Origin: a virus
Direction: 5' to 3' (one strand)
DNA: 64,000 bases
IMG/VR virus record: IMGVR_UViG_3300029243_000160
Location: 32,001 to 96,000 of that record
Every line of letters starts with the position of its first letter. Position 1 is the first letter of the stretch. The notes below the pieces were generated by a model. It had not been told where the DNA came from and ran no database searches. It saw only the letters and a list, made by a program, of their open reading frames with translations. Shown here one piece after another: positions 1-38,713 of this stretch. The translations under genes were made by a program, and so were the position numbers.

Positions 1-781
1 GGCTTCGGAAAGCTTCAATTTCACCGCCCTTGATGCTGAATCTGGCGTAATCACCATTGACAGATGCCATGATAGGATAAACGACACCAAGGTCAACGCC
101 CATGATTTTTTCAGTGTCAAGCGTAGAAATGACATGGTTATCAAAAGAATAGCAAAGGTTCAGTTTCCACAGCTTTTTCTTCTTGTCATACATCAGCTTG
201 CTTGCACTGACTTTGTATTCATCGTTCATCAACCGTTCCAGAATTGTCCGGACAGACTTATCTCTTACCTGCATACGGAAACGCAGGTCATCTTTGATGC
301 CGTATTTTTCTTTTCCAGCACGATTCAGCATTTTCAGTGCAACAAAAAAGTTGCCGTTTTCATAGGAAAGCTTAATTGCTTTGTTGTGAATATCCAAAGG
401 CTGATTTGCCTTAAAAGAGAGTACAGACCGTTCCCCTTTCAGCATTTCCTTTTTGTAATTGCTGAATGCAGTACAGGTGTCTCTGGAAGATGTGGAGAGA
501 TTGGAAGAATACAGGTCGTTTCCGTTTTTGATACGGTCGTAAACGAATCCGCTTAACGTATATCCAAGAGTATCTTTCTCCTTCGGATATTCTTCTGACT
601 TTTTGTAGTAGTCGCTGGAGAAGTTCAGCCACTCCCAGCAGAGCTGTACGCATTTGTTCTTGATGTCTCGTGTCTGCCTCTGCAAGTTCCACAGCAATTC
701 GCTGATTTTCTTAAAATCAATCTTATTGCCGTCCTTGTCGATTTGCTCGCTAATCAGATAGACCTTTGTTACTTTGGTCAT
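1..781 (-). CDS. Miniature Cas12f/TnpB-like RNA-guided nuclease, N-terminal 260 aa (runs off the left edge)
   Basis: Own translation from ATG (rc of 779-781), RBS AAAGGTGA upstream, open to position 1: MTKVTKVYLISEQ...LWNLQRQTRDIKNKCVQLCWEWLNFSSDYYKKSEEYPKEKDTLGYT...ERLMNDEYKVSASKLMYDKKKKLWKLNLCYSFD...EKIMGVDLGVVYPIMASV...IKGGEIEAFRS. The GVDLG segment looks like a RuvC-I motif. Motif order recalls (from memory) Cas12f1-type effectors and related TnpB. RuvC-II/III and the Zn finger lie outside the window. Confidence 0.6.
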   Translation of the reverse strand, partial: MTKVTKVYLISEQIDKDGNKIDFKKISELLWNLQRQTRDIKNKCVQLCWEWLNFSSDYYKKSEEYPKEKDTLGYTLSGFVYDRIKNGNDLYSSNLSTSSRDTCTAFSNYKKEMLKGERSVLSFKANQPLDIHNKAIKLSYENGNFFVALKMLNRAGKEKYGIKDDLRFRMQVRDKSVRTILERLMNDEYKVSASKLMYDKKKKLWKLNLCYSFDNHVISTLDTEKIMGVDLGVVYPIMASVNGDYARFSIKGGEIEAFRS

Positions 782-786
782 AAATA

Positions 787-1641
787 TCACCTTTTATCCA
801 GAATATCGTATATTTGATTTTTCGATTTTTTATATTTCTTTGAGATTGCTTCAAGAGCAATGATTGCAACCACCGTGTCTGCAATCAAAAGAGTTGCCAA
901 TAAGAATACCGCTGGCAGAATAAATGGATTCTCTCTGGAGCGAACTAAGACCATGATGTCAGATACAGCAAATAAGCAGAATGCGATTGTCAGAATCAGT
1001 CCGGTGAATATACCACAGCGAATGTACTTGCCCTGTTTGCGTTTGGCACTGCGACCGATTCTCTTGTAAATGCTCTTATCTTCCATCGTGTTAGAATACC
1101 AGCTTAACAGATAGAGTTCTGGTTCAGATAGTGTGAAATCAATTTTCCGAAAGTCATAGCTTTCAATATTTCTGCCGAAGCAAAAGTTGATAAATGCAGT
1201 AATAACATTCAGATTCATCTCTGTCATGTCGAAATAGTTTATGAATGTGATGTAGTCCTCTCGGCTTGCATCACCACCTACAGCTCTGCGTGAGCTTGCC
1301 GGAACTTGCTCAATCAGTGCAGTCAGCACTTTCAAAATAGAAATTGTGCAGTATTCATCAAGCACCTGCTGCCAGTCGAACAAGTCGCATAAGTCGCACA
1401 AAAGCTTTACTCTGACTTTCTGTTCAACAGGCGGTTTCTGCATTATTCTATGAATTTCAGCCAGTACAAAGCGAATTTCTTCCGCAAATTCACCTGCCGT
1501 CCGAATATCTTTGGTATACACATGATTGCTGTAATGCAGATAGCCACAATTGCCACACCAATATCCTTTGATATATTTGTCTGGTGCATCAACTGTTGTT
1601 CCGCACTTATCGCAAATCAGTCTGCCGTCTGCAAGATTCAA
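787..1641 (-). CDS. Zinc-ribbon protein with C-terminal transmembrane segments, function unknown
   Basis: 284-aa ORF. N-terminal CDKCG...CGNCG four-Cys ribbon and hydrophobic C-terminal helices. Ends 5 nt before the Cas12f/TnpB-like start. Confidence 0.6.
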   Translation of the reverse strand: MNLADGRLICDKCGTTVDAPDKYIKGYWCGNCGYLHYSNHVYTKDIRTAGEFAEEIRFVLAEIHRIMQKPPVEQKVRVKLLCDLCDLFDWQQVLDEYCTISILKVLTALIEQVPASSRRAVGGDASREDYITFINYFDMTEMNLNVITAFINFCFGRNIESYDFRKIDFTLSEPELYLLSWYSNTMEDKSIYKRIGRSAKRKQGKYIRCGIFTGLILTIAFCLFAVSDIMVLVRSRENPFILPAVFLLATLLIADTVVAIIALEAISKKYKKSKNQIYDILDKR

Positions 1642-9751: not shown

Positions 9752-11110
9752 TCAGTTATTTTCTTCTGTGCTTGATTCTGTATCAGGCAAGCTTTCCTGC
9801 TCCGTTTCTTCGGAAGATTCTTCACTGGTTGCGTCTGTTTCGGAATTTTCTCCAGTGTCAGCAGTATCTTCCGGAGATTGCGAAACCTTCGCTTCTTCTA
9901 CCACGCCGACCAGACTATTGATAACAACCATGTCTTCCAAGCTCTTTGTGATTGAGGAATCCGCATCAGAACGTGCATAAATGAAACGCTCATAGCTGTC
10001 AGAAAGCTTGTTGTAGGTAGTTGCCACCAGAATGCCGTCCTTGTAAACGATTGCCTGCTGGAGAGCCTTGTCTTCAAACACCCACTTTTCATTCATGTCC
10101 GCAGGAGCGTGGAAGAACATACTGTCTTTTTCTCCGTAGTAGAACGCAACGTCACCATACTCATTCATGAACGGATATTTCTGCATCAATTCGTTTTTCT
10201 TGATGTTTGCGTTCAATTCTGTAGCAGACGTGCTTTCAACTTCCGGAAGTTCTTCATAAGGCGTAAAAGTGCTTCTCATACCATCTTTCACAAGCTTAGA
10301 GTAGTAGAACTCTTTTACCTCACGATTTCGCATATCCACATACTGCACGGTATCAGATTTCTGCGAATCTTTCTTTTCTGTCTTTGTCGCCACTTCTGTT
10401 TTGTCGCCATTAACAGGCTTCAAAACAACAACCAGCCGTTCACGATTTGTCTGAATTGCAAAAGTGTCATCATCAACTCGCTGATACTCAAAAAGTTGCG
10501 TTGTGATGTCAGGTAACGTAGCATCTACTGTTGCAGTAGCATATGCCTTGCACCAATCCTTATCGCAGTCATATAAAATTCTGTAGTTTGCGGTTAAACC
10601 TGTAGAATTATCGCTCGACATAAGCAATGGGTCTGTGATGCTTACTCCGGCTACACTATAATCATCTTTCTCATTTCTTGTAACCTTTGCGGTAAGTCCC
10701 TCATCTCCACCTGCGGAAAAAGAACTTGTTTCACTTGCCATTTGAGAAATAACTGTGTCCCAGTCTGTTTCTTCCTCATTGAACCACTGTGTGTCTGTGA
10801 TGATTGGTGTGTCCAAAAAAGTGGACACAAAATCCTGATAGCCGTCTGCTGTCCAATATGAGTTAGGACTGGTTTCTCGTACAGCGGTGTTGTTGGATTT
10901 CATCTGCTCCATAACATTCAAAACGCTATCCTTCAATGTCAATGTGCGAATCACGCCACCACGATAGTCGTTCTGCTGTAATTCCTGACCTGTTTTGTCT
11001 GTGGCATTCGATGTCTGAGTGCCTGCACTGCCAGAGCCACAGCCAACAAGAGAAAACGTCAGACCTGCTGCCAAAACAGCAGAAGCAATCCGTTTGTTCC
11101 ATTTGTTCAT
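9752..11110 (-). CDS. Lipoprotein (452 aa), likely part of the transfer apparatus
   Basis: Signal peptide with lipobox LVGC (AAGLTFSLVGCGSGS). Acidic Ser/Thr/Glu tail. Confidence 0.7.
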   Translation of the reverse strand: MNKWNKRIASAVLAAGLTFSLVGCGSGSAGTQTSNATDKTGQELQQNDYRGGVIRTLTLKDSVLNVMEQMKSNNTAVRETSPNSYWTADGYQDFVSTFLDTPIITDTQWFNEEETDWDTVISQMASETSSFSAGGDEGLTAKVTRNEKDDYSVAGVSITDPLLMSSDNSTGLTANYRILYDCDKDWCKAYATATVDATLPDITTQLFEYQRVDDDTFAIQTNRERLVVVLKPVNGDKTEVATKTEKKDSQKSDTVQYVDMRNREVKEFYYSKLVKDGMRSTFTPYEELPEVESTSATELNANIKKNELMQKYPFMNEYGDVAFYYGEKDSMFFHAPADMNEKWVFEDKALQQAIVYKDGILVATTYNKLSDSYERFIYARSDADSSITKSLEDMVVINSLVGVVEEAKVSQSPEDTADTGENSETDATSEESSEETEQESLPDTESSTEENN

Positions 11111-11138
11111 ATAATTTCCTCGTTTCTGTTTAATAAGA

Positions 11139-11167
11139 AAGGGGCTAACTTTTTCAATTAGCCCCTT
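11139..11167 (-). terminator. Hairpin / weak terminator
   Basis: AAGGGGCTAA...TTAGCCCCTT 10-bp stem. The minus-strand tail TCTTATT is only moderately T-rich. Confidence 0.4.
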
Positions 11168-11239
11168 CCGTTGTGAAGTCTTACTTATTCACCCTGTCGT
11201 TTGGGTTTTCTTTTTGAATAAAAGAATGTATGCAAGTAT

Positions 11240-11620
11240 TTATTCACCCACAATCTTGATGGCAACCAGAATGGACTTCAATGCAGTCATAACAATGCCT
11301 GCCAGAGCCATGATAATGCCCTTGGTCTTTGCTTCCGGCTGGTTCTGCATAAAGGACATTACAACCTCATAAACGCCGTACACAACCAGTGCAACGCCGA
11401 CAAAGCGAGTAATGGTCAGCAAAATGCCGATAATCTTGCCCATCATCGTGCTTGCATCGGTGCCTCCATTCGCTGTCACCTTAACATCTTCGCCGAAGCT
11501 TGCAAATGCTGTTGTAGCACTCATGCTCGCCATAGCAGACATGATGCCTGCACCAGTCATAATCTTGCGGAACAGACCGCACTTCTTTTTCTTAGTAGTT
11601 GTCATTGCTGTAGTCTTCAT
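11240..11620 (-). CDS. VirB2/TrbC-like pilin candidate (small two-TM secreted protein)
   Basis: Start taken at the internal ATG with RBS AAAGGAA. Signal-like N-terminus ending AFASFG, then two hydrophobic helices. Confidence 0.35.
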   Translation of the reverse strand: MKTTAMTTTKKKKCGLFRKIMTGAGIMSAMASMSATTAFASFGEDVKVTANGGTDASTMMGKIIGILLTITRFVGVALVVYGVYEVVMSFMQNQPEAKTKGIIMALAGIVMTALKSILVAIKIVGE

Positions 11621-11672
11621 CTCAAACAATTCCTTTCTGTATGAAAAAATGTGTGTTAGAACAATCACAGCT

Positions 11673-12077
11673 TTATGAGATAAGCCGTTCTTTGTCCTGC
11701 TTATTTATCTTAGCTGGCGGTGCTGTTTGAATAACATTCCACTCATCAGCAGGGATAACATAGTCATCGCCGTATTCCTTTTTGATTTCTTCGGGGTCGT
11801 ACACAAAGTCTGTTTCATTGATGTAACATTGTGTACTCAGCTTTTCCCTTCCAACCGTTCGGAGAAAATCCCAAGCAGGCATTCCATACGGTTTGAAAAA
11901 ACCAAAGAACAAAATCAATCCGGCAGGCGGTATTGCAATTTCAATGCTTCCTGTCAGCTTGTAAGTCAAAAATCCTACAGCCGCACCAGCAGCAAGAAAC
12001 GCCGCTTCTTTGAAGGAGAAATTGCCAATATCCTTTGTTTTGTATTTTCTGATGTCTTGTCCAATCAGAATTTCCAT
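11673..12077 (-). CDS. PrgI-family / VirB3-like conjugation membrane protein
   Basis: DIRKYKTKDIGNFSFKEAAFLAAGAAVGFL resembles the PrgI-family N-terminus followed by TM helices. Confidence 0.5.
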   Translation of the reverse strand: MEILIGQDIRKYKTKDIGNFSFKEAAFLAAGAAVGFLTYKLTGSIEIAIPPAGLILFFGFFKPYGMPAWDFLRTVGREKLSTQCYINETDFVYDPEEIKKEYGDDYVIPADEWNVIQTAPPAKINKQDKERLIS

Positions 12078-12095
12078 TGCCTTTCACTCCTTTCA

Positions 12096-12127
12096 CTATA
12101 TATATGTAAGAATTAAAGGAAAAACGG
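12096..12127 (-). promoter_or_regulatory. 26-nt transfer-module motif, copy A (divergent)
   Basis: Minus strand GTTTTTCCTTTAATTCTTACATATATATAG, 18 nt upstream of the PrgI-like start. Confidence 0.5.
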
Positions 12128-12144
12128 AGCGTTTCTGCTCCGTT
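12118..12144 (-). terminator. Rho-independent terminator
   Basis: AACGGAGC-AGAAAC-GCTCCGTT followed by TTTTCC on the minus strand. Its T-tail merges into motif copy A. Confidence 0.6.
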
Positions 12145-12174
12145 TCTGAAAATTATTTTGTGAACTTTTTTCTT

Positions 12175-13032
12175 TTACGCTCCAAGTGCTTCTTTGCTCA
12201 CTTGTTTTGCAACATTAGATGCTGCAATTGCTGCAAACGGTGCTACCAGATACATCAGCAAGCAGCTCAATCCTGCCACGATGTCAGGGTCGCCACCAGC
12301 ACCTGTAAGAGCCGCCAGCTGTTCTGTTGTCATCGCAGTCGCAAGTGTTAAAGCAATCCGAGGCAACGCAACCAGTGCCACACCATAAAGCCCAAGTGCA
12401 AGGAATCCTTTGATATAGCGAATTGCGTTGGAGTGTCTGCCACCATAAATGTCAGCCACTGCAATCGGCAAAACAGAAAGTCTGAACAGCAGTTCCAACT
12501 TATACATCATGCCCTTGTACCACCATACCAATTTCAGTACCAATCCGATAATTGCTGTAAGCATTAGGATAATCAGCACAACAAGCAAAATGAAGAAACC
12601 AAGTTTCCCAAACATCTCCATCAGCTTTGTCATGACTTCTGCAAGGTCGGCTTGTGTTGTATCTCCGGCTTTTGCAAGATTTGAAATTTTTGTGATGAAT
12701 GTATCATTGAACATGATAATGCTCGAAACAATTTTTCCGCTTTGTGATATAACTGCAATTGCAACCATCAATTTCAAAAATGGTGCAAAGAAGCTCTTCA
12801 TCGTCAAATCTCTGCCTTCCAAGGCGAGCTTTTCGTTCATTTCCATCAGGAAATAGACCAAAGTAAAAGCAATGCCTGCAATAGCCAAATAGTTGTATAT
12901 TTCTTTGACAATAGAGGTCATTTTATCCCAGTCTCCACCGCCTTGAATTGTGACATACTTTGCGTCAAGGCTACACGCCTGTGCAATTACTGTTGTCACC
13001 AAGTTCAGCACCCACTCAACCGCTTTTTTCAT
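12175..13032 (-). CDS. Polytopic membrane protein, VirB6/TrbL-like candidate
   Basis: 285 aa with about 6 hydrophobic helices. Positioned between the coupling protein and the PrgI-like gene. Confidence 0.4.
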   Translation of the reverse strand: MKKAVEWVLNLVTTVIAQACSLDAKYVTIQGGGDWDKMTSIVKEIYNYLAIAGIAFTLVYFLMEMNEKLALEGRDLTMKSFFAPFLKLMVAIAVISQSGKIVSSIIMFNDTFITKISNLAKAGDTTQADLAEVMTKLMEMFGKLGFFILLVVLIILMLTAIIGLVLKLVWWYKGMMYKLELLFRLSVLPIAVADIYGGRHSNAIRYIKGFLALGLYGVALVALPRIALTLATAMTTEQLAALTGAGGDPDIVAGLSCLLMYLVAPFAAIAASNVAKQVSKEALGA

Positions 13033-13055: not shown

Positions 13056-14903
13056 TTATGTTGTAGGCATTATGCCTGTAACATCTTTTTCTTCATCTGT
13101 ATTCAGATTCCTGTAATACAGCTCTGCATTGATTTTCTTCTTTTTGACTGCCTGAACGTCTTTCCAACGGCGATGCTCTGTCAAAAGAAGCTTTCTGCAA
13201 ACGTAAGGAGTAACATCACGAATAATGACAATCTCATCATCACGATTTTTCGCAGGGTCATTGATAGCACCGATTTCATCAATGCTCATGAGGTCTACTT
13301 CGGTCGGCGTGTATGACGTTGATACTCCTGATTGACTGGACGATGTTGACTTCTGACGAATTGTAGTCTTGCCAAGCATTTTCTGAATCTGTTCTTTATC
13401 TTCCTTTAAGATAGAACCAAGGAAAATCGTTGTATCTACATTGGCAAGCACGGTTTCATGTTCTCCGTCCTTATACATCGTTTTCAGCTGTCCAATATCC
13501 TGAATTACTACATGAGAGCCGATGCGGTACTTACGGCTTGTTGACAAAATCGTTAAGAAGTTCGGGATTTCACCGATATTCTTAAACTCGTCCAGCAAGA
13601 AGTTGATATGAATAGGAAGCGAAGGGTCGCCACCAGCAAACTCATCTCCAGCCCATATGTACATCTTGTCCATATCTTTGATAAGTGTTTCAAGCGGTTC
13701 TCGAAGAACGCTGGACTTGTAATACTTCATTCCTTTTCGTTTGCCGGAAGCATCTTTTTCCGGTGAATTGAAAGCAATGTGATAAATAGAAGTGTTATTC
13801 ACATAGGCTTCTTCAACAATATTATCCTCTGTCACAGTCTCATAAAACATCTTTGCTTCTTCTTCGGAATCGAAGTAATCGAACACCGGAGTTCCCACTC
13901 TGTACCCGATATGCCATTTTCCCCGAAGCTTTCGCTCTCCCAGTTCATAAAGCCGTCCATACAGCTGCGAATACAGCATCGCAATCAAGAAGTTGAACGC
14001 CTGATGCGACTGCGGAATACCAAGAAACAGATACGACTGCTGGGTTGCCATCTTGTCAATGTTGATATTCATGTTCTTGTACTTCTTATTGGTGCGAGTA
14101 ATCATGTCCACTTCATAAGTGGAGAATATCTGCAAATCGACCGCTGTAGTAATCAAGATGGTATTTGCTGTCTTCTGCGGAGCAATCAGGAACGTATCAT
14201 AATACAGCTTTGTTTTGTTGTTCGGGAAACGCTTGAAGAAATCGTCCAGCCGACAAGTAAGAGGTGATTTTGTTTTTCCATCATCGCTTACCTTTGCTTC
14301 CTGAACCAATTTCAAGATTGTAGAAAAGCATCTTCCACCGTTCAATCGCTGTGTTCTGCCACCTTTGATGCCTTCACAAGGGAATCCATCAAGGAGCAGG
14401 TCTTCATCTTCTTCCAGAACATAATAAATCAGTGCCGTCATGAATGCTTTTTCTGACTTGTCCCAGAAGGGGTCTCCACCGCCAGCTTCCTTGCCAGCCT
14501 TCGCATTTTTCATGTAAAGGTCTACCAGAATGTTGACCTGTGTTTCTGAGATGTTGCCATAGCTGTCAAACACATTCTCCAGCGGATTATAATTGTTAGA
14601 CAGCGTAAAGTCTGAGGCATTGAACAGGAATACGTTATATCCTTTGGAAAGCAGATACGGTGCAAACGAACGAAAAATATCTCCGGAAGGGTCTGTGACC
14701 ACCATAGAGCAGTTTTCCTGCAAGATGTTCGGTTTGATATATTTGAACGTCTTACCTGTACCAGTGCCACCGATAACCAGCACATTCGCTGAACGGTTGA
14801 CTTTCTTGTTATTTAACGACAGCCCCAAATATTCGCCTTTGTATACGCCAAACAGCATATTGTTGTCGATATAAGAGCTGTCTTGTACTTTACTTTTTGC
14901 CAA
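13056..14903 (-). CDS. Type IV coupling protein (VirD4/TraG family ATPase)
   Basis: Walker A VIGGTGTGKTF, MVVTDPSGD, and the C-terminal LLDEFKNIG / SHVVIQDIGQL pattern typical of TraG/VirD4. Confidence 0.85.
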   Translation of the reverse strand: MAKSKVQDSSYIDNNMLFGVYKGEYLGLSLNNKKVNRSANVLVIGGTGTGKTFKYIKPNILQENCSMVVTDPSGDIFRSFAPYLLSKGYNVFLFNASDFTLSNNYNPLENVFDSYGNISETQVNILVDLYMKNAKAGKEAGGGDPFWDKSEKAFMTALIYYVLEEDEDLLLDGFPCEGIKGGRTQRLNGGRCFSTILKLVQEAKVSDDGKTKSPLTCRLDDFFKRFPNNKTKLYYDTFLIAPQKTANTILITTAVDLQIFSTYEVDMITRTNKKYKNMNINIDKMATQQSYLFLGIPQSHQAFNFLIAMLYSQLYGRLYELGERKLRGKWHIGYRVGTPVFDYFDSEEEAKMFYETVTEDNIVEEAYVNNTSIYHIAFNSPEKDASGKRKGMKYYKSSVLREPLETLIKDMDKMYIWAGDEFAGGDPSLPIHINFLLDEFKNIGEIPNFLTILSTSRKYRIGSHVVIQDIGQLKTMYKDGEHETVLANVDTTIFLGSILKEDKEQIQKMLGKTTIRQKSTSSSQSGVSTSYTPTEVDLMSIDEIGAINDPAKNRDDEIVIIRDVTPYVCRKLLLTEHRRWKDVQAVKKKKINAELYYRNLNTDEEKDVTGIMPTT

Positions 14904-16623: not shown

Positions 16624-19600
16624 TTATTTTTCTTTACGAGCTTCCTCAAATGCCTTGTACTTGTCACAATCAAAACGATAAAGCCAAGTCTTGCCATCAG
16701 GATTCTTCACATAGTAGTATGTTTTTGTTTTACCGATATTGCAAAGTGACGTTGCATCGGTTCTACGCAGATAAATCGTGCCAATATCTTTGTTCGGACT
16801 AAGGTCTACCGTCAAAGACTGTCCTGCTTTAATGGTTGTACCATCAGACAATTCCAAATCTTCGTTCAGTTCACCGATGTAAACAACTGCCAAATCTCTC
16901 TTCATCATCAGCAGTGCTTCGTTTGAGCCAGAATTGTTGATTTCATTCACATCATTTGCATCAATATTTACATTATCGCTGCTCACCAATGCTCCAGCAC
17001 TAACGCTTCTGACATGACGGATAATGTCCGCTGGCAAATACAAGCTTGCACTCGGAGACTTGATTGCCTTCGAGTTATCAATCGTGTTGCTCTGAGTTGC
17101 TGTCTGTCCTGTCCATGAAGAATACATACGAATGAAATCCCATGCTGTTCCGGCAGTGCAGTTTGCATTAAAGTTTCTGTCAGCAGCTACACAATAGCTC
17201 TGAACCAGACCATGATTATGTCCATCTTCATCATTGTAATGAGCCTTGCCGACCCAGCTAAGAGCAATTCTTACCGCCTGTTCTCTGCTGTCATTAAAGC
17301 TTGAACCGTACTTCTTTTTCAAAGCATCTACGATTTTATCAATGTCTTCCTGACACAGGACTTTTGCACCGAGTTCAGTCGGAATGTCAAATTCATATAC
17401 ATCTTGCCAATCCATCGTCTGCCTCAAAACCGCAAGCGTCATGTTATCACCATTCCAGCCTTCGTAGTCGTCCCAATCCTTTGTACCAAAGCAGTTTGAA
17501 CCCTTCAAAACCATTTCATCAACGTCAAAGATGTCTCGGCATAGATACTGCTTATTTTCTTCACTGTCGGATTCACCAACAACATGGAAGCCTTCTTTCC
17601 AATTGCCACCTTCCACATACAAGTTCAGTCCATAGCTGTGTCCCATATAACTTCCTTGTACATCAGATGCTGGTGTTTCACTGCCACCAGACCAAGCCGC
17701 ATCAGAAACAGTGCCACTGTAGTTCACTTTATCCGTAATCACCTTGCCACGAATTTCATCATATCTGTCATCAGACCAATCCATCTGAACAGGGAACTGA
17801 TAATCTTCGTTGTATGTGCCAACAAGTGCAAGCTGTTCGTTTGTCATGGAGAATACGTTGCCTCTGGAGATAACACCAAGATGACCGCCACAATACTGGT
17901 AAGAATGTCCCTTACACTTTCTTGTCAGAGTAGTTGTACTATCTCGGTATATCTCAATAGAGCCATTCTCATAGCGATACTGTTTTTTATATTGTTTAAT
18001 GTTTGTATTCACTTGAATTGCAACTCTATACCAGATTACGCTTGTGAGCAAATCGTATTCATCTTGATACGATTGTCCAGTATATCCTCTCGCCGTCAAC
18101 ACTCTGCCAATCATGTAATTAAGGTCGTCCCAGCTCATGTAATTTGTAACAAAAGTAGTGTTGATATGATACACATTACCGCCTGCCTGATAACGATTTT
18201 TCACTTTTTGATATATTTTATCAATCGTTAGGTAGTTACCAGAGCTATCTTTCAAATAGTTATTGGCAAAATCATTCACGTCTTCATTTTTCGGAATTGG
18301 CATATAAAAATATGCTTTCTCTTTTCCGTTAATGTTATTGTAATTTGTCTGCTCTGCTGACACTTCGTCTTTCCAAGTATCGTTTGTCTTATCTGTAATC
18401 AAATGTGTGCTATCTGTATAATCAAGAATGGGAACTTCTGCTTTTCCGCCTTGCTCATACACATAGCCGTTTCCGGTTGTGTATTTTGTGGCATTTTGTA
18501 TGTATACACATCTTTTTTCCTGCTTGGACGATGTTTGAACTACATTGGTTTTCAATGTGCCAACATTCGGGTTGGAATTACTTTTGGTCGCAAAATCTTT
18601 TGTTAGTCTTGTGACAGAGTAATCTCCTTCCTCTCGGTAAATGTGATAAGCGTCATCTGGCAAATGGTATGTATCTCGATAGCTTCTCAATTTGTTCGAT
18701 ATATCTGTTTTCGCACCACTTTCAGAATCGAACCATTTGCCATTTTTGTTTTGCAAGTTGTAATTGAATATACCACCACTGATTCTAGCACTGCTCGGAT
18801 TAACAGTCTTGCTGCTCCAACACTTGCCACTGTGATTGCTTATCCAAGTAACAACTGCATCAAATGTTGTTTTGTTACTCGTCATACCAGACCATAAACA
18901 CAGGTCGTTCTTACTGCCGTTAAGGTTTTTGTTCGTATCAACAGTAATATCAAAAGCACCTGCATGATTGGTGTAATAGCGTTTGAAGTCAGAGCCAATG
19001 ATATAAGGCTGAGGGCTGTCGTCCGAACTACTTTCAATACCAACATAGAAATCTTCTACTTTTGGATTCGTGCAATAGCCCAGCTCTGCTGCCTCACTTT
19101 CTGACAAACTATCAATTTCGTACTTTGTCCCATCAACCTTTACAGTAGGATTGCCTAAGCGACTGCAATACTTCACGGTATAATCCCACGTCTGCTGATG
19201 TGATGCAGAAAACAGCGTTGCAGTATAGTTCTGCAATGTTTTGTAACTAAAGGTTGTTCCAGAAGCATCTGCCCATGTAATGTAATTCGGCTCAGTATCT
19301 TCTTTGCCACCAAACAAATTTTTGACAAACTCGCTGATGTTATTTCCTAACATCTTGAAAAATCCGGTGAATCTGTTTTTGAAGTTTTCCCAATTCAATT
19401 CCGCAGGAGACATTCCCAGAACATCGCCTAATTCTTTATCAGAATTTGCATCTGTTTCAAACTGGTACATTACATCAGTCATAGAGATAATATCTTTGAT
19501 ATTGCTGGTGTGTCCGCTTTCTGTTGAAGAATAGTACACTGCTTCATCGGCACTGGGACTGAGCTTTCCATAAAGGTTCGCATTTGCAGTCATTCTCAGC

Positions 19601-22600
19601 TCTTTTTCGCCATTGTAAGCATCAAGATAAGTAAGATACTTGGTGTTGTTTGACAATGATGCCACAGCATCTTTCTGATGCCACGGATTGATAGCGATTT
19701 GAGTGTCAGCTTCAAGCAGATTGTCAAAACGCTTCAAATAGTCGGAATAGCTCATGCCCTTTGTGCCATAGGTTACATTTGCTTTATCGTCCCACAAACC
19801 TTCATAGTCAACAATCGTGTCTTTCCATGAGGTTTCCTGTTCTTCCAGCGATTCATACAGCTTATAGCATACAGTATCTTTGTAGGTCTTTGCTGCAAGG
19901 AAGTTGGTGAAAGATTCAATAATAGTCATCACAACAACGAACATGGTCAAGGCTGTCGCAACAAACAAAATGCCGATTGCCACATATTTACCGATTACCA
20001 GCATCGCCTTTGAAACGCCTGCCTGTACTTTCTGCACCAGCATACCGACTTTGCTGTTCATAAACTTTGCTTTGATGCCGTTGATTTTGCCTCTTGCTTT
20101 ACCGAACACGCTGTTTTCAGAGCGTTGCAGTCGAGCCAACTTTTTTTCCTGCTTTGCAAGAAATCTTTCGTTACGCTTCGGATTCGGTTTTGCGGCTTTC
20201 TTTGTTGTCGGCTTCTTTTTCGGTGGCTTTACAGAATCTACATTTTTCAGCCTGTTTGTCTTTTTCACATTGGCAAACTTTGCTTTCATTGCATCTTGAT
20301 GCTTCTGAATCGCCTTGACGGTATTCTTTACACCGTCAGTGGTCTTTCTTGCATATCTGTAAGTCTTTGTACCACCGCTTATCATAGCTCGCATATCTTC
20401 ATCATTGCCAGCAAGCTTTGTAGCTCCAGACATACCTTTCTGAGCCAGCTTTGCGGCAACACCAATATCCAACGCTCCCCATGCTTTCGGATTATTTAAC
20501 TGCATCAGTGCGTTTCTGGTGCTGTTGCTGATTCCCAGTTCTTTCAGTTGCTTCGCTGTAAGATTACCCAGTGCTGCCACATCAAACTTGCCTGTAGCAG
20601 TGATAAACTGATAGCCTTTGCTCTCTGCTCTTTTCAGAAATGCCTCATTGATTTTCAGGACATCAGCTCTTGTAATGCCACCTGCAATAAAATCAAGGTT
20701 AAGGTCTTTTTTCAAGTTCTGAGCAAACTTGTCATATCTTGCGAAAATAGCTTTTTCACCGTCAGACAGCTTCACCTTATTGCCAAGTGATTTCAGCACT
20801 TCCGCATCATCATCAGACAATTTGATTTTGCCTGTTTCCGCAGCGTGTTTCATAGTCTCTGACCATTCAGACAGCACTTTTTTCTGGTGATATACCGAGA
20901 TGCTTTCACCTCTCATCACCTTTTCCAGCACTTTTCTCTGTTCGGCGGTAAACGAAGACTTATTCTTCCGGATAAAGTCAAGCTCCGGCTGTGACAATGC
21001 AATTGTTACAGATGCTCCTAGTGCAATTGCACCTGTGTTGATGGTGTTTTTAATCTCGTCCAGAGAGCCACCATCTCGGAAGCCAGACTTCGTAACGACT
21101 GGAGCAGCATATTCCTGCCGATACAGGTTGTTTTGAATGGTCTGTGCATTACGAACCATTCTCTCCTGCTTCTCGCTGATATGTTCTGTAGCAATTTTCT
21201 TCTTCTTTTTATAGAAGCCTCTTGCCTGATACTCACGGCGAATAAATTCGTCCGGATTTCTGCCACTTTTGATAAAGTCGGCATATCGCTTGTCTTCTTT
21301 CTTGTCGAAAGCGTCCTTACGTTTCTTCTCCTGCTTCGCAAAGTCAGCAAGTTCATCTTGATGTGTAGCATAATATTTGTCTTTCTTTACTTTGTACGCA
21401 TCATCGTATTCCCCTTGCTTTTCTTTTACCTTTTCTTTTCTTCGAGCAGATTCCTGCAAAATCTGTGCCGACTGTGCAACACGCTTATGATGTTCAGCCA
21501 GCACCTTGCCCTTGATTTTTTCATCAGTAACAATTTCGCCGTTGATTACAACCATATCATTGCCAAAAACAATTGCCTTGCCAATGCCACGATTTTTCTG
21601 AGCCGCACCCAGTCGCATTGAAGAACTGCTTCTTTCAAATGTTTCCTGTCGAAGTGTAGCCTCTTCAAAGATTCGCTTATTGGTCGCTACAGCACTGTAC
21701 TTTGCAAGGTCGTTTACAGCATTGATGCTCTTATTGACTGTTTTGCCGAACAGTCCCATCTGTCCAAACGTATATGTGAACAGCTTCTGCTCTTCACTTT
21801 CAACAGCTCGCAGTCCACCCTGTTCCTGTTCATCACGAAGTTCCTGTATTTCCTTGCTTTTATCAGACTGCCCATGAACGCCAGCTTGCTTGACATCTAT
21901 ATCTGTCTTTTCTGTAAAGTCTGCAATCAACTGTTCCGCAGATTTTGCCACATTTCGATAATGTTCCTGCGGTTTTGCAGAAGCACCATGTTTGTCATCA
22001 GTCTGAAACTTTTGATTCAGTGACTGAACAGCACTTTCCGTCCTCATAAAGCTTGCCTTGCTTGCCAAGCTCTTTGCTTCTAAACTGCCGTTAGAATCCC
22101 ACTCTGTACCAGTCTTCGCATGAAATTCAGTCGCAATATCGTGCATAGCATTCTGATAGTCCAGAAACATCTGCCGTTCATGCGGAGTGGTGATTTTTCC
22201 TTTTTCCTGAATCGTTTCCATTGCTTCTGCAACGTCAGGGCGGTCTTCCAGAAACTGCCCCATAAACGTAGAATCCATGCTCTTCTGAACAAACGATTTC
22301 TCATTTTCGTTCAGTCGAACCGATGTCATCTCAGGCTCTTTTTGCTGTGTCAAATTGACACTTTCAGCAGCAGAAACCGCACCGCCAAAAGAATTATTTG
22401 TCAAAGCCACAAACTCTTGCATGATTCTGCGGTCATTATCATTTCTTACTTCACCAGTTTCTACGATTCTTTCCAGCGTTTTCATGTTGTCGTAATTACT
22501 CAAAAAATCACTGTACGGAGTAGTTGGTGCTGTATTCTGCGATTCTGCTGATGTTTCTTCAAAACTTGAAGTGTACCCAGAATAAGAAGGAGATGGTTGA

Positions 22601-26289: not shown

Positions 26290-28863
26290 TTATTCTTCGT
26301 CTTCTTTTTCGCCATCAAACTCTTCATTTGCCTTGCGTTTGATAGCTGTTTTTCTTGCTTCATCGTTCGGGTTTGTGGACATGATGTGATACAGTTCACT
26401 ATCAGTCGGAAGCTTATAGTCAATCGGAATAATTACCGAGTTGTTGTAAATCAGACCAGTACCAGAAGGCTTATCCTTGATGTAATCAATCAGTGCATCA
26501 GAGATACCGTACAGGTTCTGGAGCTGCTGTCTGCCGATAGGAGACTGGTTCAGGAAAATGAAGAAGCCTGTGTTGTTGAACATTGCAGTACCCTGTCTGG
26601 TGGACAGCAAGTCGGCAACGTCCTGTGTGATACCTGTCATGATACCGCCGTACTTACGAACACGCTTGTAGTAAGCCATTACCGTAGAAGCAGAGCTTTC
26701 TGTTTTGAAGAAATGGTGGAACTCATCGAGGTACACCCAGATAGCCTTACCAGTGTGATACTTTTCGTTTTCCTCACGGTTCTTGACAATCTTTGTCCAG
26801 ATGTTCGACAGGCACACCTTCATTGCCATCTCTGTCATTTTTTCCGGCAGATAGAGCAGGTTGTAAATTGTCAGTCTGCTGTGTCCTTCAATGTTGGTGT
26901 GATGAGCGAATACGTTGTAGTTACCAATGCAATACTGCTCAACAGCCAGTGCAACCTTAGTGCCTTCCTGTGTACCGTCAGCCATCAGTTCGTTGTAGAA
27001 CTCAACCAGTGTCGGACAAATTTCAGTGTCCAGTTCGTCAGACTGTCCTTCTTCACAGCCATCTCTGTGTCGGCGTGTCATCTCTTCAATGTAGTCTTCA
27101 TACATACGAGTGCAGGCACGATGAATTGCATTTGTCTCATAGATGTTGCACTCTCTGCCTTTACCCAGAATAGATTCAACCAGACCTACCATGTAGTCGC
27201 ACTTTTCAGCCAGCGGAGTAGCCTTCGGGTCGTCCCATTCCATTGCCATATCGCAAGGATTGATGTGATACTGAGACTTCAATTCAAGGTCGATGGTTCT
27301 GCCACCAAAATGTTCTGCAACAACATGGTATTCGTTCTCAGGGTCGAGGATAATCATGTCATCGTTGCCATCGAGCAGGTTCGGGATAATCTCACCCTTT
27401 GTGATGAAGGACTTACCAGAACCAGACTGACCAAAGATAAGTCCGTTCGCCAGACGAGAACGCTTACGGTCGTACATAACCATGTTCTTGGAGATTGCAT
27501 TCGAGCCGTAGAAGTGTCCCTTCTTATCTGTCAGCTCCTGAATGTTGAATGGGAACAATGCACAGGCGTTATCTGATGTCAGCATACGGTCGATAATCAC
27601 TTTGCTGTTGCCACAAAGGATTGCTGTGTTCAGACCTGCGACCTGCTGCCCAATCAGATAAGAAGGAGTAACAGAATAGTCTGCACACTTTGCTGTGTAT
27701 TGAGCTGTGATATTTTTGATTTCGTCATCGTCCTTGCCGAAGATAGAAACAACCATTGTAGCGAAGAACAGCTTCTTGCCTTCGTTTACAACATCATGAC
27801 GAAGCTTACCGGCATCTTCTCTTGCCTGAATCAAATCCTCATTGATAAGGTCGGTGGAGTAACCACTCTTATACGCCTGCTGAGAAGCTTTGATAACGTC
27901 AGCCTTTACAGAAGTGTTCTGCATCTTTACAAGCTGGAGAGCCTTCTTACGAGGAACAGGCTTGAACTGAATTACCGTTACCATCTCATAAGGAAGGTTG
28001 GTTACGTTGGTAAGAAACGAAGTGTCCAGCTGCTGAGGCAGGTTTGCATAAGCGTAGCTCTTGCAGTATCTTTCATCGTCAAGCTGAATGCACTGTCTTG
28101 TCTTTGCAATTACCTGCGGTGCAATCAAGTCCTTGACAGACACACCGGATTTTCTAAGAGCAGGCAAATCGAGGGACAGCTTTTCGTTGCCTTCATCGTC
28201 TTTGTGCTTTGCAAAGTAACGCTCAAATTCCTTGTGGAACGGAACGCAGTCAGAGCCACGAAGAATCTTCTGCATTACTGCCAGACGGTCAATTGCGTCC
28301 AGCTGTTTCACGCCGACCTTGTTGATGGTCTTTACAGCTTCCTGTAAGGAAACATCTGCGGAGTTAAATTCCATCTCTGCCTGAGACAAACCGTTGGCAG
28401 TACGAATGGTAAGCATGATGTATTTTTCCTTGCTGATTTCGTTGTGACCCTCTTCGATTTTCTTGTCGATGATATGGTTATAGTCAGTACGATATTCGTC
28501 CAGACCATCGCCAGCTTCTTTCAGATGATAAGCCGCTGTGATGTCTTCCTTTGTGTTACGTTCATTGATAATGATAACGGAAATATCCACATTATCAGGG
28601 AAGCGGTTCATCAGCTTTGTGTAGTTGACCAGATAATCAACCTGTTTATCTTCCGGTTCAGTAACAAAGTTACTGTCTATCAGTTTATAAAGCTTGCTGT
28701 AGTAGTTGCCGGAAATAATGATACCGTCTTCGGTGATGTAATCGAAGTCGATAATTTCCTGTGCAGTGCGAGCAATTTTCATCGGCTTTTTTCTTGCCTT
28801 TGCAGGTGTGTTTTCTCCACCTTTGGTATTCTTCTTTGCAGGGGCTTTCTTCATAAATGCCAT
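26290..28863 (-). CDS. VirB4-family conjugative ATPase
   Basis: 857 aa. Walker A GQSGSGKSF, ILDPENEY and VYLDEFHHFF (Walker B-like). Size and position match Gram-positive VirB4 homologues. Confidence 0.85.
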   Translation of the reverse strand: MAFMKKAPAKKNTKGGENTPAKARKKPMKIARTAQEIIDFDYITEDGIIISGNYYSKLYKLIDSNFVTEPEDKQVDYLVNYTKLMNRFPDNVDISVIIINERNTKEDITAAYHLKEAGDGLDEYRTDYNHIIDKKIEEGHNEISKEKYIMLTIRTANGLSQAEMEFNSADVSLQEAVKTINKVGVKQLDAIDRLAVMQKILRGSDCVPFHKEFERYFAKHKDDEGNEKLSLDLPALRKSGVSVKDLIAPQVIAKTRQCIQLDDERYCKSYAYANLPQQLDTSFLTNVTNLPYEMVTVIQFKPVPRKKALQLVKMQNTSVKADVIKASQQAYKSGYSTDLINEDLIQAREDAGKLRHDVVNEGKKLFFATMVVSIFGKDDDEIKNITAQYTAKCADYSVTPSYLIGQQVAGLNTAILCGNSKVIIDRMLTSDNACALFPFNIQELTDKKGHFYGSNAISKNMVMYDRKRSRLANGLIFGQSGSGKSFITKGEIIPNLLDGNDDMIILDPENEYHVVAEHFGGRTIDLELKSQYHINPCDMAMEWDDPKATPLAEKCDYMVGLVESILGKGRECNIYETNAIHRACTRMYEDYIEEMTRRHRDGCEEGQSDELDTEICPTLVEFYNELMADGTQEGTKVALAVEQYCIGNYNVFAHHTNIEGHSRLTIYNLLYLPEKMTEMAMKVCLSNIWTKIVKNREENEKYHTGKAIWVYLDEFHHFFKTESSASTVMAYYKRVRKYGGIMTGITQDVADLLSTRQGTAMFNNTGFFIFLNQSPIGRQQLQNLYGISDALIDYIKDKPSGTGLIYNNSVIIPIDYKLPTDSELYHIMSTNPNDEARKTAIKRKANEEFDGEKEDEE

Positions 28864-28881: not shown

Positions 28882-30228
28882 TTATGCTTTTTCCTGTGCT
28901 TGTTCCTGTGAATCGTTTGCTTTTTCCTTTTCATCTTCCAGATGAATGAAGTAAGATGCTTCAATGTGATTCTTTTCCAGAATTGCACGAGCAAGGTCGT
29001 ATTCATCGGTTTCCATTTTGTCCATGTAAACACGGCGACCTTTGCAGTCCATAGCTTTCAGTTGGTGTTCCAGCAGAATCAGATTTTCCATCGTTTCCTT
29101 TGGACTATCTGTCTTAATGAAAACCAAACTTCTTTTGCTGGTTCTGGACGGTCGAACCGTGATAGGTCTGGACGAGGAACGTGCAAACGATGCTTGTCTT
29201 TCCGAATCCATGTCTTCGTCCAAAAACTTTTGCTGAGGCAAAGAACGTGGAGCTTGATTCGGAAGTTCGATGATGACGATTGCATCATCTTCTATCTCAG
29301 CGTCCACAAGTGAACCGCTGTAGAAATTCACTGGAGTTGCTTTTGCAGGAACATATTTCTTTGCCTGCATTGCAACAAGTTCGTCTTTTTTCCACGAGTA
29401 CCCTTGTCTGGTAATCAGACTTTTTAGAACGTCATTCTGATTTTCAAGGTCTGCAATTCTTTGCAGCAACGGATAAATTCCGATGTCGTTTTTTTCAATT
29501 CCATAATTCTTTGCAACTGTCAGCATAGAGTTCAGTTCTTTTGCCAGATGCTCCTTCTGCTCTTCCATTTGTCCGATTTGTTTTTTCAGACTTTCGACTT
29601 TCATCTGGAGAACAGTTTTGTTGCCACCGTTCGTTGCACCGTTCAAAATTTCTGTCTTATATCCCAGATAGCTTTGAACATAATCACTCAGTCGCTGGTG
29701 CATCGTTGAAAGATATTTTCGGGAAATCAAATCCTTGCAGCAGATTCTTTCGGTCGGCATTTCACCGCCGTGGTTTGCCTTCCAATCTTCCAGCGACTTC
29801 AAGCATTCATTGCTTGTGAACTGTGGCTGCTCACCTTTCAACACTGGAACAAAATCCAAGTGCATATGCGGTGTCGTTTCATCTTTGTGAACAACTGCAT
29901 TGACAATGTTTTCTTCTCCAAGGTCATTGCAATAAAAATCATAAACGGCTTGAAAAAAATCTCTTTCATCTTCGTCTTTGACATCTTTCGGGAGTGTCAC
30001 AACGAACTCTCCAACCACAGTTGTGTTGTTTCGTTTTTTTGCGATAAACACTTCTGACAATCGCTCCTTGACATCTTCCGGTGTCCCTTTTTTGAAGTGA
30101 TAGTTTTGGTAAGTTCGTTCATTGTCGATGGATTCATTGCTGTGTACAACGCCGTCATTTTGCATACGGTTGTTGTGTAAGAACAGTCGTCCAATGCTGG
30201 CAGGCGAGTATTTACTGAATTGTGCCAT
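28882..30228 (-). CDS. MOBV-family relaxase (Mob/Pre plasmid recombination enzyme)
   Basis: The N-terminal domain has the HxDExxPHxH signature (VVHKDETTPHMHLDFVP). A coiled-coil C-terminal half follows. Confidence 0.8.
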   Translation of the reverse strand: MAQFSKYSPASIGRLFLHNNRMQNDGVVHSNESIDNERTYQNYHFKKGTPEDVKERLSEVFIAKKRNNTTVVGEFVVTLPKDVKDEDERDFFQAVYDFYCNDLGEENIVNAVVHKDETTPHMHLDFVPVLKGEQPQFTSNECLKSLEDWKANHGGEMPTERICCKDLISRKYLSTMHQRLSDYVQSYLGYKTEILNGATNGGNKTVLQMKVESLKKQIGQMEEQKEHLAKELNSMLTVAKNYGIEKNDIGIYPLLQRIADLENQNDVLKSLITRQGYSWKKDELVAMQAKKYVPAKATPVNFYSGSLVDAEIEDDAIVIIELPNQAPRSLPQQKFLDEDMDSERQASFARSSSRPITVRPSRTSKRSLVFIKTDSPKETMENLILLEHQLKAMDCKGRRVYMDKMETDEYDLARAILEKNHIEASYFIHLEDEKEKANDSQEQAQEKA

Positions 30229-35164: not shown

Positions 35165-35506
35165 TTATGCTTTGAAGCATCTGTTGCGGTCGATGGTGAA
35201 ACGGCTTGTGTTCCCAACTTTTCCGATTGTCACAAGGTCGGTGTATCGCTCTCGGAACAACCGAATTGCTCGTGCTACAGAAGCTTTTGAGTAATGCAGT
35301 GCCTGTGCAATCGTGTCAAGACTGCATACAAGCTCGTTTTCATCGTCCATTTTGGAAATAATGAATGCCAGTACCATGCCTTCCCTTGTGTCATTCATCA
35401 GCAACTCTTCATAGCGTTCCTGATAACCATGCTCCATGATAAGAGCATTCTCGTACTGCCGTTCCTGAAATGTCCCATCTGGAAGCAATATCCGATTATT
35501 TTTCAT
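35165..35506 (-). CDS. RepL-like winged-helix protein (paralogue 2)
   Basis: Start set at the ATG with RBS GGGGTGA. ...VCSLDTIAQALHYSKASVARAIRLFRE...VTIGKVGNTSRFTIDRN matches the wHTH layout of the adjacent RepL-like protein. Confidence 0.45.
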   Translation of the reverse strand: MKNNRILLPDGTFQERQYENALIMEHGYQERYEELLMNDTREGMVLAFIISKMDDENELVCSLDTIAQALHYSKASVARAIRLFRERYTDLVTIGKVGNTSRFTIDRNRCFKA

Positions 35507-35984
35507 CGTTATCACCCCATTCTTTCTTTGTAAGGATAATGTTTCCTTCAAACTCACAATACTGTACCTGATTTCCTTTGCCTTTCCACACTACATCAGG
35601 ATTGAGCAAGTACACGCTTGCACCGCCGCTTCTCTTGATTTGCAGAATGTTTTCTGATTCTAGCAAAGAGATTGCTCTCCTTACCGAAGACTTGGAAACA
35701 CCAAAGTATTCCATGAAAAACTGATAAGAAGTGACCAGTGCGTTTTTCTGATTCATCTTCTTCACAATCAAAAGATAAATTCTTGTTGCCAACGGAGAAT
35801 CTGCAATCTTCATCAGAACATCAAGCCTGTCAATGTTCTGCTGTGCAAATCTGCTGTATGCAGACTTTTCAGCTTGCTTTCTTTTTCGCATTTCTTCCTT
35901 TTCAGTTTCTCTCAGATACCGTTCTCGTTGCTCGAAAGTCATGTCAAAATCCTTTGTCTTTCCGACTGTGATTTCTTCTGCCAT
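35496..35984 (-). CDS. RepL-family plasmid replication/maintenance protein
   Basis: 162 aa. ...LLIVKKMNQKNALVTSYQFFMEYFGVSKSSVRRAISLLESENILQIKRSGGASVYLLNPDVVWKG parallels the firmicute RepL (pSN2-type) core as recalled. It lies next to the iterons. Confidence 0.6.
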   Translation of the reverse strand: MAEEITVGKTKDFDMTFEQRERYLRETEKEEMRKRKQAEKSAYSRFAQQNIDRLDVLMKIADSPLATRIYLLIVKKMNQKNALVTSYQFFMEYFGVSKSSVRRAISLLESENILQIKRSGGASVYLLNPDVVWKGKGNQVQYCEFEGNIILTKKEWGDNDEK

Positions 35985-38279: not shown

Positions 38280-38280
38280 G

Positions 38281-38481
38281 TGCGAACCGGAAGTTCCAGA
38301 AAAATGCTGGGACGTTCGCAGTTCAAACTAAGGCGACTTAACGTCTTTGAGCCGAGATAGTGTGCGTAATCCTCTCTCTGGAGAGTAGCATTCACTCTCG
38401 GCAAGGTAAACTGCAAGACGCAGTTTGAAATCCTGCACATAAAATCCGTGCAGGCATCTTGTAAATATGTGCATCTTTGCT
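38281..38481. ncRNA. Structured ~200-nt region flanking the CRISPR array (candidate leader, tracrRNA-like or other ncRNA)
   Basis: Four successive stems: TGCGAAC/GTTCGCA (38282-38321), GCCGAGA/TCTCGGC (38352-38403), AAACTGC/GCAGTTT (38409-38427) and CCTGCAC/GTGCAGG (38433-38455). Contains GTGTGCGTAATC, resembling the repeat core TGTGCGTATC. No ORF. Confidence 0.35.
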
Positions 38482-38713
38482 GTTGCAACTTGTGCGTATC
38501 TGCGAGATGTAAGTTACCCGACCTGCCCTCGTCGGTGAACTCCCCGAGTTGCAACTTGTGCGTATCTGCGAGATGTAAGTTAAATGACAGCTTTTGTTTT
38601 TTACCGTTGATAAGTTGCAACTTGTGCGTATCTGCGAGATGTAAGGAGAATACAAAAGACACGATACTGCCAGCAACACCGGTTGCAACTTGTGCGTATC
38701 TGCGAGATGTAAG
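38482..38713. CRISPR. Orphan CRISPR mini-array, 4 repeats and 3 spacers
   Basis: Identical 32-nt repeats GTTGCAACTTGTGCGTATCTGCGAGATGTAAG at 38482, 38548, 38614 and 38682. Unique spacers of 34, 34 and 36 nt. The repeat holds the small palindrome ATCT-GCG-AGAT and the terminal palindrome GTTGCAAC. Confidence 0.85.

Follow-up and report, generated by a model that had tools for sequence, protein, structure and literature searches.

The window analysed here is a 64,000-nt stretch of the viral record IMGVR_UViG_3300029243_000160 (positions 32,001 to 96,000). At its first position it cuts through the gene of a compact RuvC nuclease, encoded on the minus strand, and near 38.5 kb it carries a short CRISPR array. 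What kind of nuclease is this, a miniature CRISPR effector or a transposon-type TnpB, and what is the relation of the distant array to it? A preliminary description of the window had leaned towards a Cas12f effector, with a domesticated TnpB as the alternative. Our analysis favours, at a probability of about 0.88, a type V-F1 (V-U3 branch) CRISPR-Cas12f system that rides as cargo on an integrative conjugative element from a gut Lachnospiraceae bacterium and most likely serves in the conflict of mobile elements with one another. This reading is built from sequence, namely homology, an intact active site, a covarying trans-activating CRISPR RNA (tracrRNA), two arrays, spacer polymorphism and protospacer matches. 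The coordinates of the features in the window are collected in Table 1.

The nuclease and its active site

The open frame runs on the minus strand from an ATG at 781-779 to position 1, where the window edge cuts it after 260 codons, and its translation contains all of the peptides singled out earlier (LWNLQRQTR, QLCWEWLNFSSDYY, EYPKEKDTLGYT, EYKVSASKLMYDKKKKLWKLNLCYSFD and GVDLG). The upstream gene of the same operon, encoding a protein of 284 amino acids, has its stop codon at 787-789, exactly 5 nt from the ATG of the nuclease gene, as had been described; a ribosome-binding site (AGGTGA) overlaps this stop codon. Looking up the exact sequence of the 284-residue neighbour in public assemblies yielded nine long contigs that keep this gene order, and synteny of the two genes is seen in contigs L001 and L009-L017. 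One contig from a metagenome, L014, shares 11,641 bases with the window at 100% identity and runs past coordinate 1; a further contig, L016, is also identical over the compared region. L014 was taken as the continuation of the window, and the off-window part was read from its positions 10861-12500, revealing the remaining 177 codons, the stop codon, a cognate tracrRNA and a mini-array of two spacers. Type V-F1 effectors are compact (about 400-550 amino acids) and join a WED/REC half at the N-terminus to a split RuvC and a zinc-finger (TNB) domain at the C-terminus. The full protein fits this size with 437 amino acids, and an identical sequence (P0121) is present in the protein collection on five contigs of up to 146 kb.

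The 260-residue fragment by itself matched the structures of AsCas12f1 (8j12, 7wju and 8dzj; E 2e-49, residues 20-259) and of OsCas12f (9nzq; E 1e-37), and that of Un1Cas12f1 only at E 4e-4, consistent with the Cas12f1-like N-terminus that had been proposed. Its match to the NCBIfam model guided_TnpB was sub-threshold, and Pfam returned no match to the fragment, the diagnostic domains being located in the off-window half. With the full protein, the match to AsCas12f1 (8j12) extended over residues 20-427 with 47% identity (E 1.4e-117, 396 bits), and that to OsCas12f (9nzq) over residues 22-425 (E 2e-108). The PADLOC profile for Cas12f (CAS-V-F) was matched from position 4 to 397 of 399 (E 4e-134, 446 bits) and the Cas12u3 profile at E 7e-129 (429 bits), and the Pfam family Cas12f1-like_TNB is recorded for the full gene. 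Among the NCBIfam models, the umbrella subfamily guided_TnpB was passed with 191.6 bits against a cut-off of 100, while IS200_TnpB (57.7 bits, cut-off 425) and IS607_TnpB (32.3 bits, cut-off 350) both failed. The effector thus lies closer to Cas12f than to TnpB profiles, as had been anticipated. In databases the gene, which belongs to a cluster of 311 members from contigs of many human-gut samples, is labelled "transposase" or "TnpB"; the structure titled "TnpB" in PDB entry 9nzp is in fact RhCas12f. By homology, the effector is of the Cas12f1 type, a close homologue of AsCas12f1 and OsCas12f1, and not an ordinary IS605 TnpB.

The GVDLG segment had been taken for a RuvC-I motif, and its aspartate, D230, indeed aligns with the RuvC-I aspartate D225 of AsCas12f1. 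Downstream, E329, R388 and D406 (residues after 260 being read from L014) align with E324, R383 and D401, and alanine at D225, E324, R383 or D401 of AsCas12f1 abolishes cleavage (bioRxiv 10.1101/2023.07.03.547593). The zinc finger is also intact, with C377/C380 and C396/C399 aligning with the CxxC pairs of AsCas12f1. The D-E-D triad of the RuvC domain, part of which lay out of sight in the preliminary description, is accordingly complete in the full-length protein. Among 23 near-identical copies that were read, all kept E329, R388, D406 and the zinc finger, and D230 was kept in 22 of them as well as in the window allele. The sole deviating copy is P0002 (L001 10681-10695, Logan SRR31227279; window equivalent ~92-94), which reads GVNLG for GVDLG; this D230N change may reflect either an error of sequencing or a naturally nuclease-dead allele.

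The ratio of nonsynonymous to synonymous substitution rates (dN/dS) was 0.10-0.29 between close copies, whereas dS was saturated for distant copies, with a dN of 0.13-0.26 (0.13-0.23 against the relatives of 80% and 67% identity). From these estimates, purifying selection on cas12f is evident.

Guide RNAs and arrays

In L014, the cas12f stop codon (12172-12174) is followed by 174 nt of non-coding DNA and then by the mini-array (12349-12500), which consists of two full 32-nt repeats (GTTGCAATCTGCGTATAGGCGTAAGATGTGAG), two 34-nt spacers and a third, terminal repeat that is degenerate in its 3' half. Farther on lie an ERF recombinase gene and genes for a PIF1-like helicase, an integrase and RusA. 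The non-coding stretch (~175-200 nt) is a tracrRNA homologue: it aligns to the published single-guide RNA scaffold of AsCas12f1, the sequence of which was taken from bioRxiv 10.1101/2022.10.20.513037, and the two have in common an invariant CUCGGUAAGGUA box and hairpins. A search of the tracrRNA and array region against Rfam (evalue mode) returned nothing relevant, and no curated Cas12f tracrRNA family was matched.

For analysis of covariation, seven sequences were aligned, comprising both cassettes of the element described here, four relatives and AsCas12f1. RNAalifold predicted 27 pairs in five helices, with 93.5% of cells paired and compensatory changes in 21 of the 27 pairs. None of 500 shuffles reached the observed values, and in slid-register controls 35-46% were paired. 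An extra 5' stem (GUGCGAA...UUCGCAC) spans the cas12f stop codon in L014 (12146-12195), L002 and L003, and in L018 the 5' stem of the tracrRNA is located just 3' of the stop codon. This overlap of the stem with the 3' end of the open reading frame resembles that of omega-RNA and tnpB, and may have persisted as a vestige of evolution. With the repeat of the adjacent array, the tracrRNA is predicted to form an extended duplex through its 3' end (-17.8 kcal/mol).

In all relatives examined, the gene is followed by a tracrRNA region of ~150-190 nt and then by an array. The same layout was observed in the 80% relative L002, in a Ruminococcus sp. genome and in a Lachnospiraceae metagenome-assembled genome; the latter two were the true relatives retrieved by a scan of genome contigs with back-translated protein patterns, which returned mostly haloarchaeal TnpBs. 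A chromosomal family with 67% identity (P0016) has five to eight repeats with sample-variable spacers, without cas1, cas2 or cas4. The search for a structured RNA or another array directly downstream of the gene, suggested in the preliminary description, thus yielded both in L014. As read from this contig, the locus beside the gene shows the canonical V-U3 layout of nuclease, tracrRNA and short array.

BLAST of the L014 tracrRNA region against the window revealed a second tracrRNA-like gene directly upstream of the 38.5-kb array. Repeats of this array start at 38482, 38548, 38614 and 38682, enclosing spacers at 38514-38547 (34 nt), 38580-38613 (34 nt) and 38646-38681 (36 nt), and the array begins 37,701 nt from the cas12f ATG, in agreement with the distance of ~37.7 kb given earlier. 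The two tracrRNAs are 78% identical (163/209 aligned positions), rising to ~90% in the 3' half. The second opens with the 5' arm GUGCGAAC of a stem, the same stem that straddles the stop codon at the cas12f locus. About 20 nt at 38280-38297, which resemble a remnant of the cas12f 3' end, are this 5' arm (stem region 38280-38320), and the cassette therefore holds a whole tracrRNA and nothing else of cas12f.

The predicted duplex between the anti-repeat of the 38.5-kb tracrRNA and its own repeat has an energy of -26.9 kcal/mol. Between the cassettes, the pairing has undergone compensatory change, from CAUCUUAU:GUAAGAUG beside cas12f to CAUCUUGU:GCGAGAUG at 38.5 kb. The cross-combined anti-repeat:repeat duplexes are predicted to pair as well (-18.5 and -20.8 kcal/mol), so that the 38.5-kb repeat could pair with the RNA encoded beside cas12f, as the preliminary description had asked. 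That description had pictured a minimal, split, adaptation-less module on a conjugative element. The module is indeed minimal, adaptation-less and conjugatively carried, but one cas12f with two tracrRNA-array cassettes is not a split module: the gene has its own tracrRNA and array beside it, and the 38.5-kb array is not the sole array partner of the effector but belongs to a second, self-contained cassette.

The adjacent array ends in a degenerate repeat, but the fourth repeat of the 38.5-kb array (38682) is intact; directly behind it come a ribosome-binding site and the ATG (38770) with which the plus-strand block opens its first gene. The 38.5-kb array therefore probably lies in the 5' leader of this plus-strand operon.

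On the cas12f side, two Logan contigs of ~39 kb (L001 and L002) terminate within a Cas12f-type repeat. Judged by their length, the other end falls where the 38.5-kb array is, as would be expected if assembly had broken at both arrays. The possibility that both arrays are a single array on a circular ~39-kb element was rejected, because the repeats match at just 26/34 aligned positions and because long ENA contigs run through both loci.

Spacers, targets and competing readings

Copies of the element differ in their spacers. One or two spacers are present in the adjacent array, and L010 has an extra one at the tracrRNA-proximal end. The 38.5-kb array of L103 has other sequences in place of both leader-proximal spacers and keeps the distal spacer. 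Spacer change at the leader-proximal end in both arrays is the pattern that leader-end acquisition produces.

No spacer matches the element itself. Metagenomes were scanned with the first spacer of the 38.5-kb array, using a pattern that excluded the arrays themselves by requiring a non-A base at -2. The scan revealed perfect 34/34 protospacers, preceded by ...ACGTTT, in contigs L098-L100 (3.4-4.8 kb), which encode a 406-residue protein with a weak, sub-threshold match to Pfam REP_ORF2-G2P (HUH Rep-like), together with a serine recombinase or resolvase. For the 406-residue protein, tblastn against plasmid and phage collections and a PHROGs scan found no relative. On these contigs, the rep-like gene is also matched, at 31/35 positions, by the extra spacer of L010. 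The metagenome scan with the conserved spacer of the adjacent array gave no match. A 16-nt core of a seventh spacer had 82 matches in IMG/VR, none extending past 25/34, and these represent chance or a common promoter-like motif. This result also lowers the weight of a 25/34 match between the first spacer of L103 and L098, which covers a motif common in viral contigs and was discounted. As a separate observation, L098 (ERZ772831 NODE_8542, ~4x) and an element copy with the matching spacer (L102/L104, ERZ772831 NODE_114, ~15x) come from the same gut metagenome.

By homology with AsCas12f1, a Cas12f dimer, in type V-F1 an asymmetric homodimer, would bind the duplex of tracrRNA and CRISPR RNA, recognize a 5' T-rich protospacer-adjacent motif (PAM) and cut matching double-stranded DNA with a single RuvC site. 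For type V-F1 as a whole, a T- or C-rich 5' PAM is expected. The one effector may be loaded with guides from both cassettes, and the element would thereby exclude competing small replicons from its host. New spacers would be acquired in trans through Cas1-Cas2 encoded elsewhere in the host; among the called genes of the window and ~10 kb on each side, no Cas1, Cas2 or Cas4 Pfam family was found.

Several points weigh against a functional Cas12f system on this element. The sequence of the C-terminal 177 residues, and of both the cognate tracrRNA and the array next to it, was taken from the identical public contig L014 and not from the window. The PAM is based on one site, since perfect protospacers are known for a single spacer, and the 31/35 match lacks a T-rich flank (ATAC or ATGC). 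For six of the eight spacers searched, exact-match scans of IMG/VR gave no credible target, and blastn with six concatenated spacers matched no GenBank phage and no PLSDB plasmid. Acquisition in trans is a step that we infer, the element having no adaptation module to supply spacers. A consensus scan gave no convincing promoter for the 38.5-kb cassette, and promoter scans performed no better than on shuffled sequence.

The least improbable of the alternatives is a decaying relic, in which a once-active Cas12f locus has become non-functional and its arrays are shrinking to one to three spacers. The very short arrays and the missing adaptation module would suit such decay, but V-U3 systems and plasmid-borne CRISPR loci typically have short arrays and no cas1-cas2 (PMC7229846, PMC9071438). 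The degenerate terminal repeat of the adjacent array, the second cassette without an effector gene of its own and the partial deletion of some element copies, such as L015, also point towards decay; set against them are an open reading frame intact across the 311-member cluster in many samples, the purifying selection on cas12f, a tracrRNA structure kept by compensatory change, also between the two cassettes, and the replacement or addition of leader-proximal spacers in both arrays. On balance, we regard a relic as improbable.

Less probable still is a nuclease-dead, domesticated Cas12f or TnpB (TldR- or dCas12f-like) serving as an RNA-guided transcriptional regulator of the element, the alternative raised in the preliminary description. 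The retention of the D-E-R-D residues and zinc finger in the window allele and 22 of the 23 copies speaks against it, P0002 with its D230N change being the copy that would fit, and the deactivated Cas12f structure 9n9c is distant (E 2e-18, compared with 1e-117 for AsCas12f1). In favour of a regulator, the fourth 38.5-kb repeat abuts the 5' untranslated region of the plus-strand operon; against it, the spacers do not match the element, and the replicon perfectly matched by one of them is foreign.

An ordinary IS200/IS605-family TnpB with its omega-RNA, that is, a transposon nuclease residing inside the conjugative element, is effectively refuted already: the passed guided_TnpB model, the label "transposase" and the omega-RNA-style overlap of the RNA 5' stem with the 3' end of the open reading frame are outweighed by the failed IS200_TnpB and IS607_TnpB models beside Cas12f scores of 446 and 429 bits, the lack of a Y1 or serine transposase nearby (no Y1-transposase Pfam family among the same called genes, in accord with the TnpA absence noted earlier), the single copy in the 64-kb window (no second cas12f by tblastn), an operon position fixed at 5 nt after the upstream gene in every element copy, and an RNA that leads into an array with variable spacers and not to a transposon right end (no explicit search for left and right ends was made).

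The interpretation as a Cas12f system on an integrative conjugative element can be compared with characterized relatives. AsCas12f1 from Acidibacillus sulfuroxidans (type V-F1, former V-U3) is alike over the whole protein, in size class (422 amino acids, compared with 437 here), in the D-E-R-D residues and CxxC..CxxC zinc finger, in a homologous tracrRNA with the same conserved box and covarying helices, in the order of nuclease, tracrRNA and array without cas1, cas2 or cas4, and in the T-rich 5' flank, seen here at the sole perfect protospacer. The present system differs in its gut Lachnospiraceae host and conjugative carrier, in the extra 5' stem straddling the stop codon and a longer stem 3 of the tracrRNA, in its repeat sequence, in having Y340 at the position of AsCas12f1 R335, and in the second tracrRNA-array cassette elsewhere in the element. 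OsCas12f1 from Oscillibacter sp. (9nzq, 9nzs and 9nzt) and RuCas12f1 from Ruminococcus sp., the latter reportedly described by Karvelis et al. in 2020, likewise belong to the V-U3 clade of gut and rumen Clostridia and have minimal loci without adaptation genes, but are distinct orthologues. With IS200/IS605 TnpB, the protein has in common the fold superfamily of RuvC plus zinc finger and a guide-RNA gene whose start lies within the nuclease reading frame or at the 3' end of this frame; it differs in the points given above, with a repeat-spacer array in place of a single fixed guide.

V-U3 loci are found in Clostridia and Bacilli, have no adaptation genes and are made up of a nuclease, a tracrRNA and an array with 33-39-nt spacers (PMC7229846), and subtype V-F is enriched on plasmids (PMC9071438). 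The absence of cas1, cas2 and cas4 separates the V-U3 branch from Cas14-type loci. The minimal, adaptation-less locus, presented earlier as a special feature, is therefore the published norm for V-U3, and neither this layout in Clostridia nor the plasmid enrichment of V-F is new. Plasmid and phage mini-arrays and adaptation-less systems such as plasmid V-F and IV-A3 (PMC9071438) also have a mobile carrier, short arrays without cas1-cas2, spacers against another mobile replicon and acquisition presumed to occur in trans. The present case differs from them in that the carrier is an integrative conjugative element and not a free plasmid, and in that two diverged tracrRNA-array cassettes accompany one class 2 effector. 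Modestly new, then, are the integrative conjugative carrier, the diverged effector-less tracrRNA-array cassette 37.5 kb from the gene, and evidence for spacer turnover without an adaptation module.

A more tentative proposal, which we consider doubtful as it stands, is that one Cas12f is served by two diverged cassettes with co-varied repeats and anti-repeats, both arrays renewing their leader-end spacers without any Cas1-Cas2 of the element. If true, it would mean that an unrelated adaptation module of the host serves a V-U3 array in trans, or that spacers are gained by a route yet undescribed, and the effector-less cassette could move between related elements, re-arming or hijacking their Cas12f.

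Current understanding is not overturned by these results. A widespread gut-microbiome gene labelled "transposase" or "TnpB" would be part of a complete miniature CRISPR-Cas12f system, and a natural 437-residue orthologue with two alternative guide scaffolds would join the AsCas12f/OsCas12f clade, which is in use for compact genome editors. The locus would also be a tangible example in which a class 2 CRISPR weapon on an integrative conjugative element is directed against a small co-resident replicon, and a usable model for how V-U3 arrays gain spacers.

The carrier element

The preliminary description had assigned the module to a conjugative element, and this is supported by type IV secretion genes, a Mob_Pre relaxase, RepL and a Tn916-like integrase and excisionase. 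In addition to the genes in Table 1, Pfam analysis (run directly or precomputed) identified PrgI, topoisomerase III, HU, an FtsH-like protease and a large polyvalent LPD protein in the window. The Tn916-type integrase (Integrase_DNA and Phage_integrase) and Tn916-Xis are encoded at L105 20634-22237, ~0.8-2.2 kb past the window end, which is the probable right end of the element. One member of the nuclease cluster, RJW77539.1, labelled "transposase", is from Coprococcus sp. AF38-1 (Lachnospiraceae) and lies on a 503-kb contig, from which we conclude that the element is integrated and thus of the integrative conjugative kind.

Table 1 Features in the window and the evidence for each
Feature	Position	Strand	Basis
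cas12f, codons 1-260 of 437	1..781	minus	translation and AsCas12f1 match
284-residue protein gene, upstream of cas12f in the same operon	787..1641	minus	open reading frame and synteny
Type IV coupling protein (VirD4/TraG family)	13056..14903	minus	Pfam T4SS-DNA_transf, E 1e-46
VirB4/TraG-like P-loop ATPase	26290..28863	minus	Pfam
Mob_Pre relaxase	28882..30228	minus	Pfam PF01076, E 1.4e-23
RepL-family replication gene	35496-35984	minus	Pfam
Second complete tracrRNA-like gene	38280..38481	plus	BLAST with L014 tracrRNA region, alignments, covariation
Mini CRISPR array, four 32-nt repeats (GTTGCAACTTGTGCGTATCTGCGAGATGTAAG), three spacers	38482..38713	plus	repeats and spacers in the sequence, spacer differences in L103
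Spacer 1 of the 38.5-kb array, perfect 34/34 protospacer with 5'-GTTT flank	38514..38547	plus	metagenome scan

A second integrase gene, of phage type, is located on the other side, beyond cas12f (L014 17162-18205). Midway through the type IV secretion block, a minus-strand open reading frame for 2,344 amino acids (16624-23658) had no Pfam match. AT-rich, iteron-like tandem repeats of 11-12 nt (36841-37055; consensus near TTAGATTTCTA, ~18 copies) lie ~0.85 kb from the RepL gene and 1.4 kb upstream of the second tracrRNA-array cassette. Together, RepL and the iterons look like a plasmid-type origin inside the conjugative element.

A decayed derivative of the element is present in L015 (1-5905). 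About 53 kb are gone (window ~6.6-59.9 kb), and with them the type IV secretion genes, the relaxase, the 38.5-kb cassette and repL; directly beside the remnant lies a tRNA-synthetase gene. This derivative keeps cas12f, its tracrRNA and the adjacent array.

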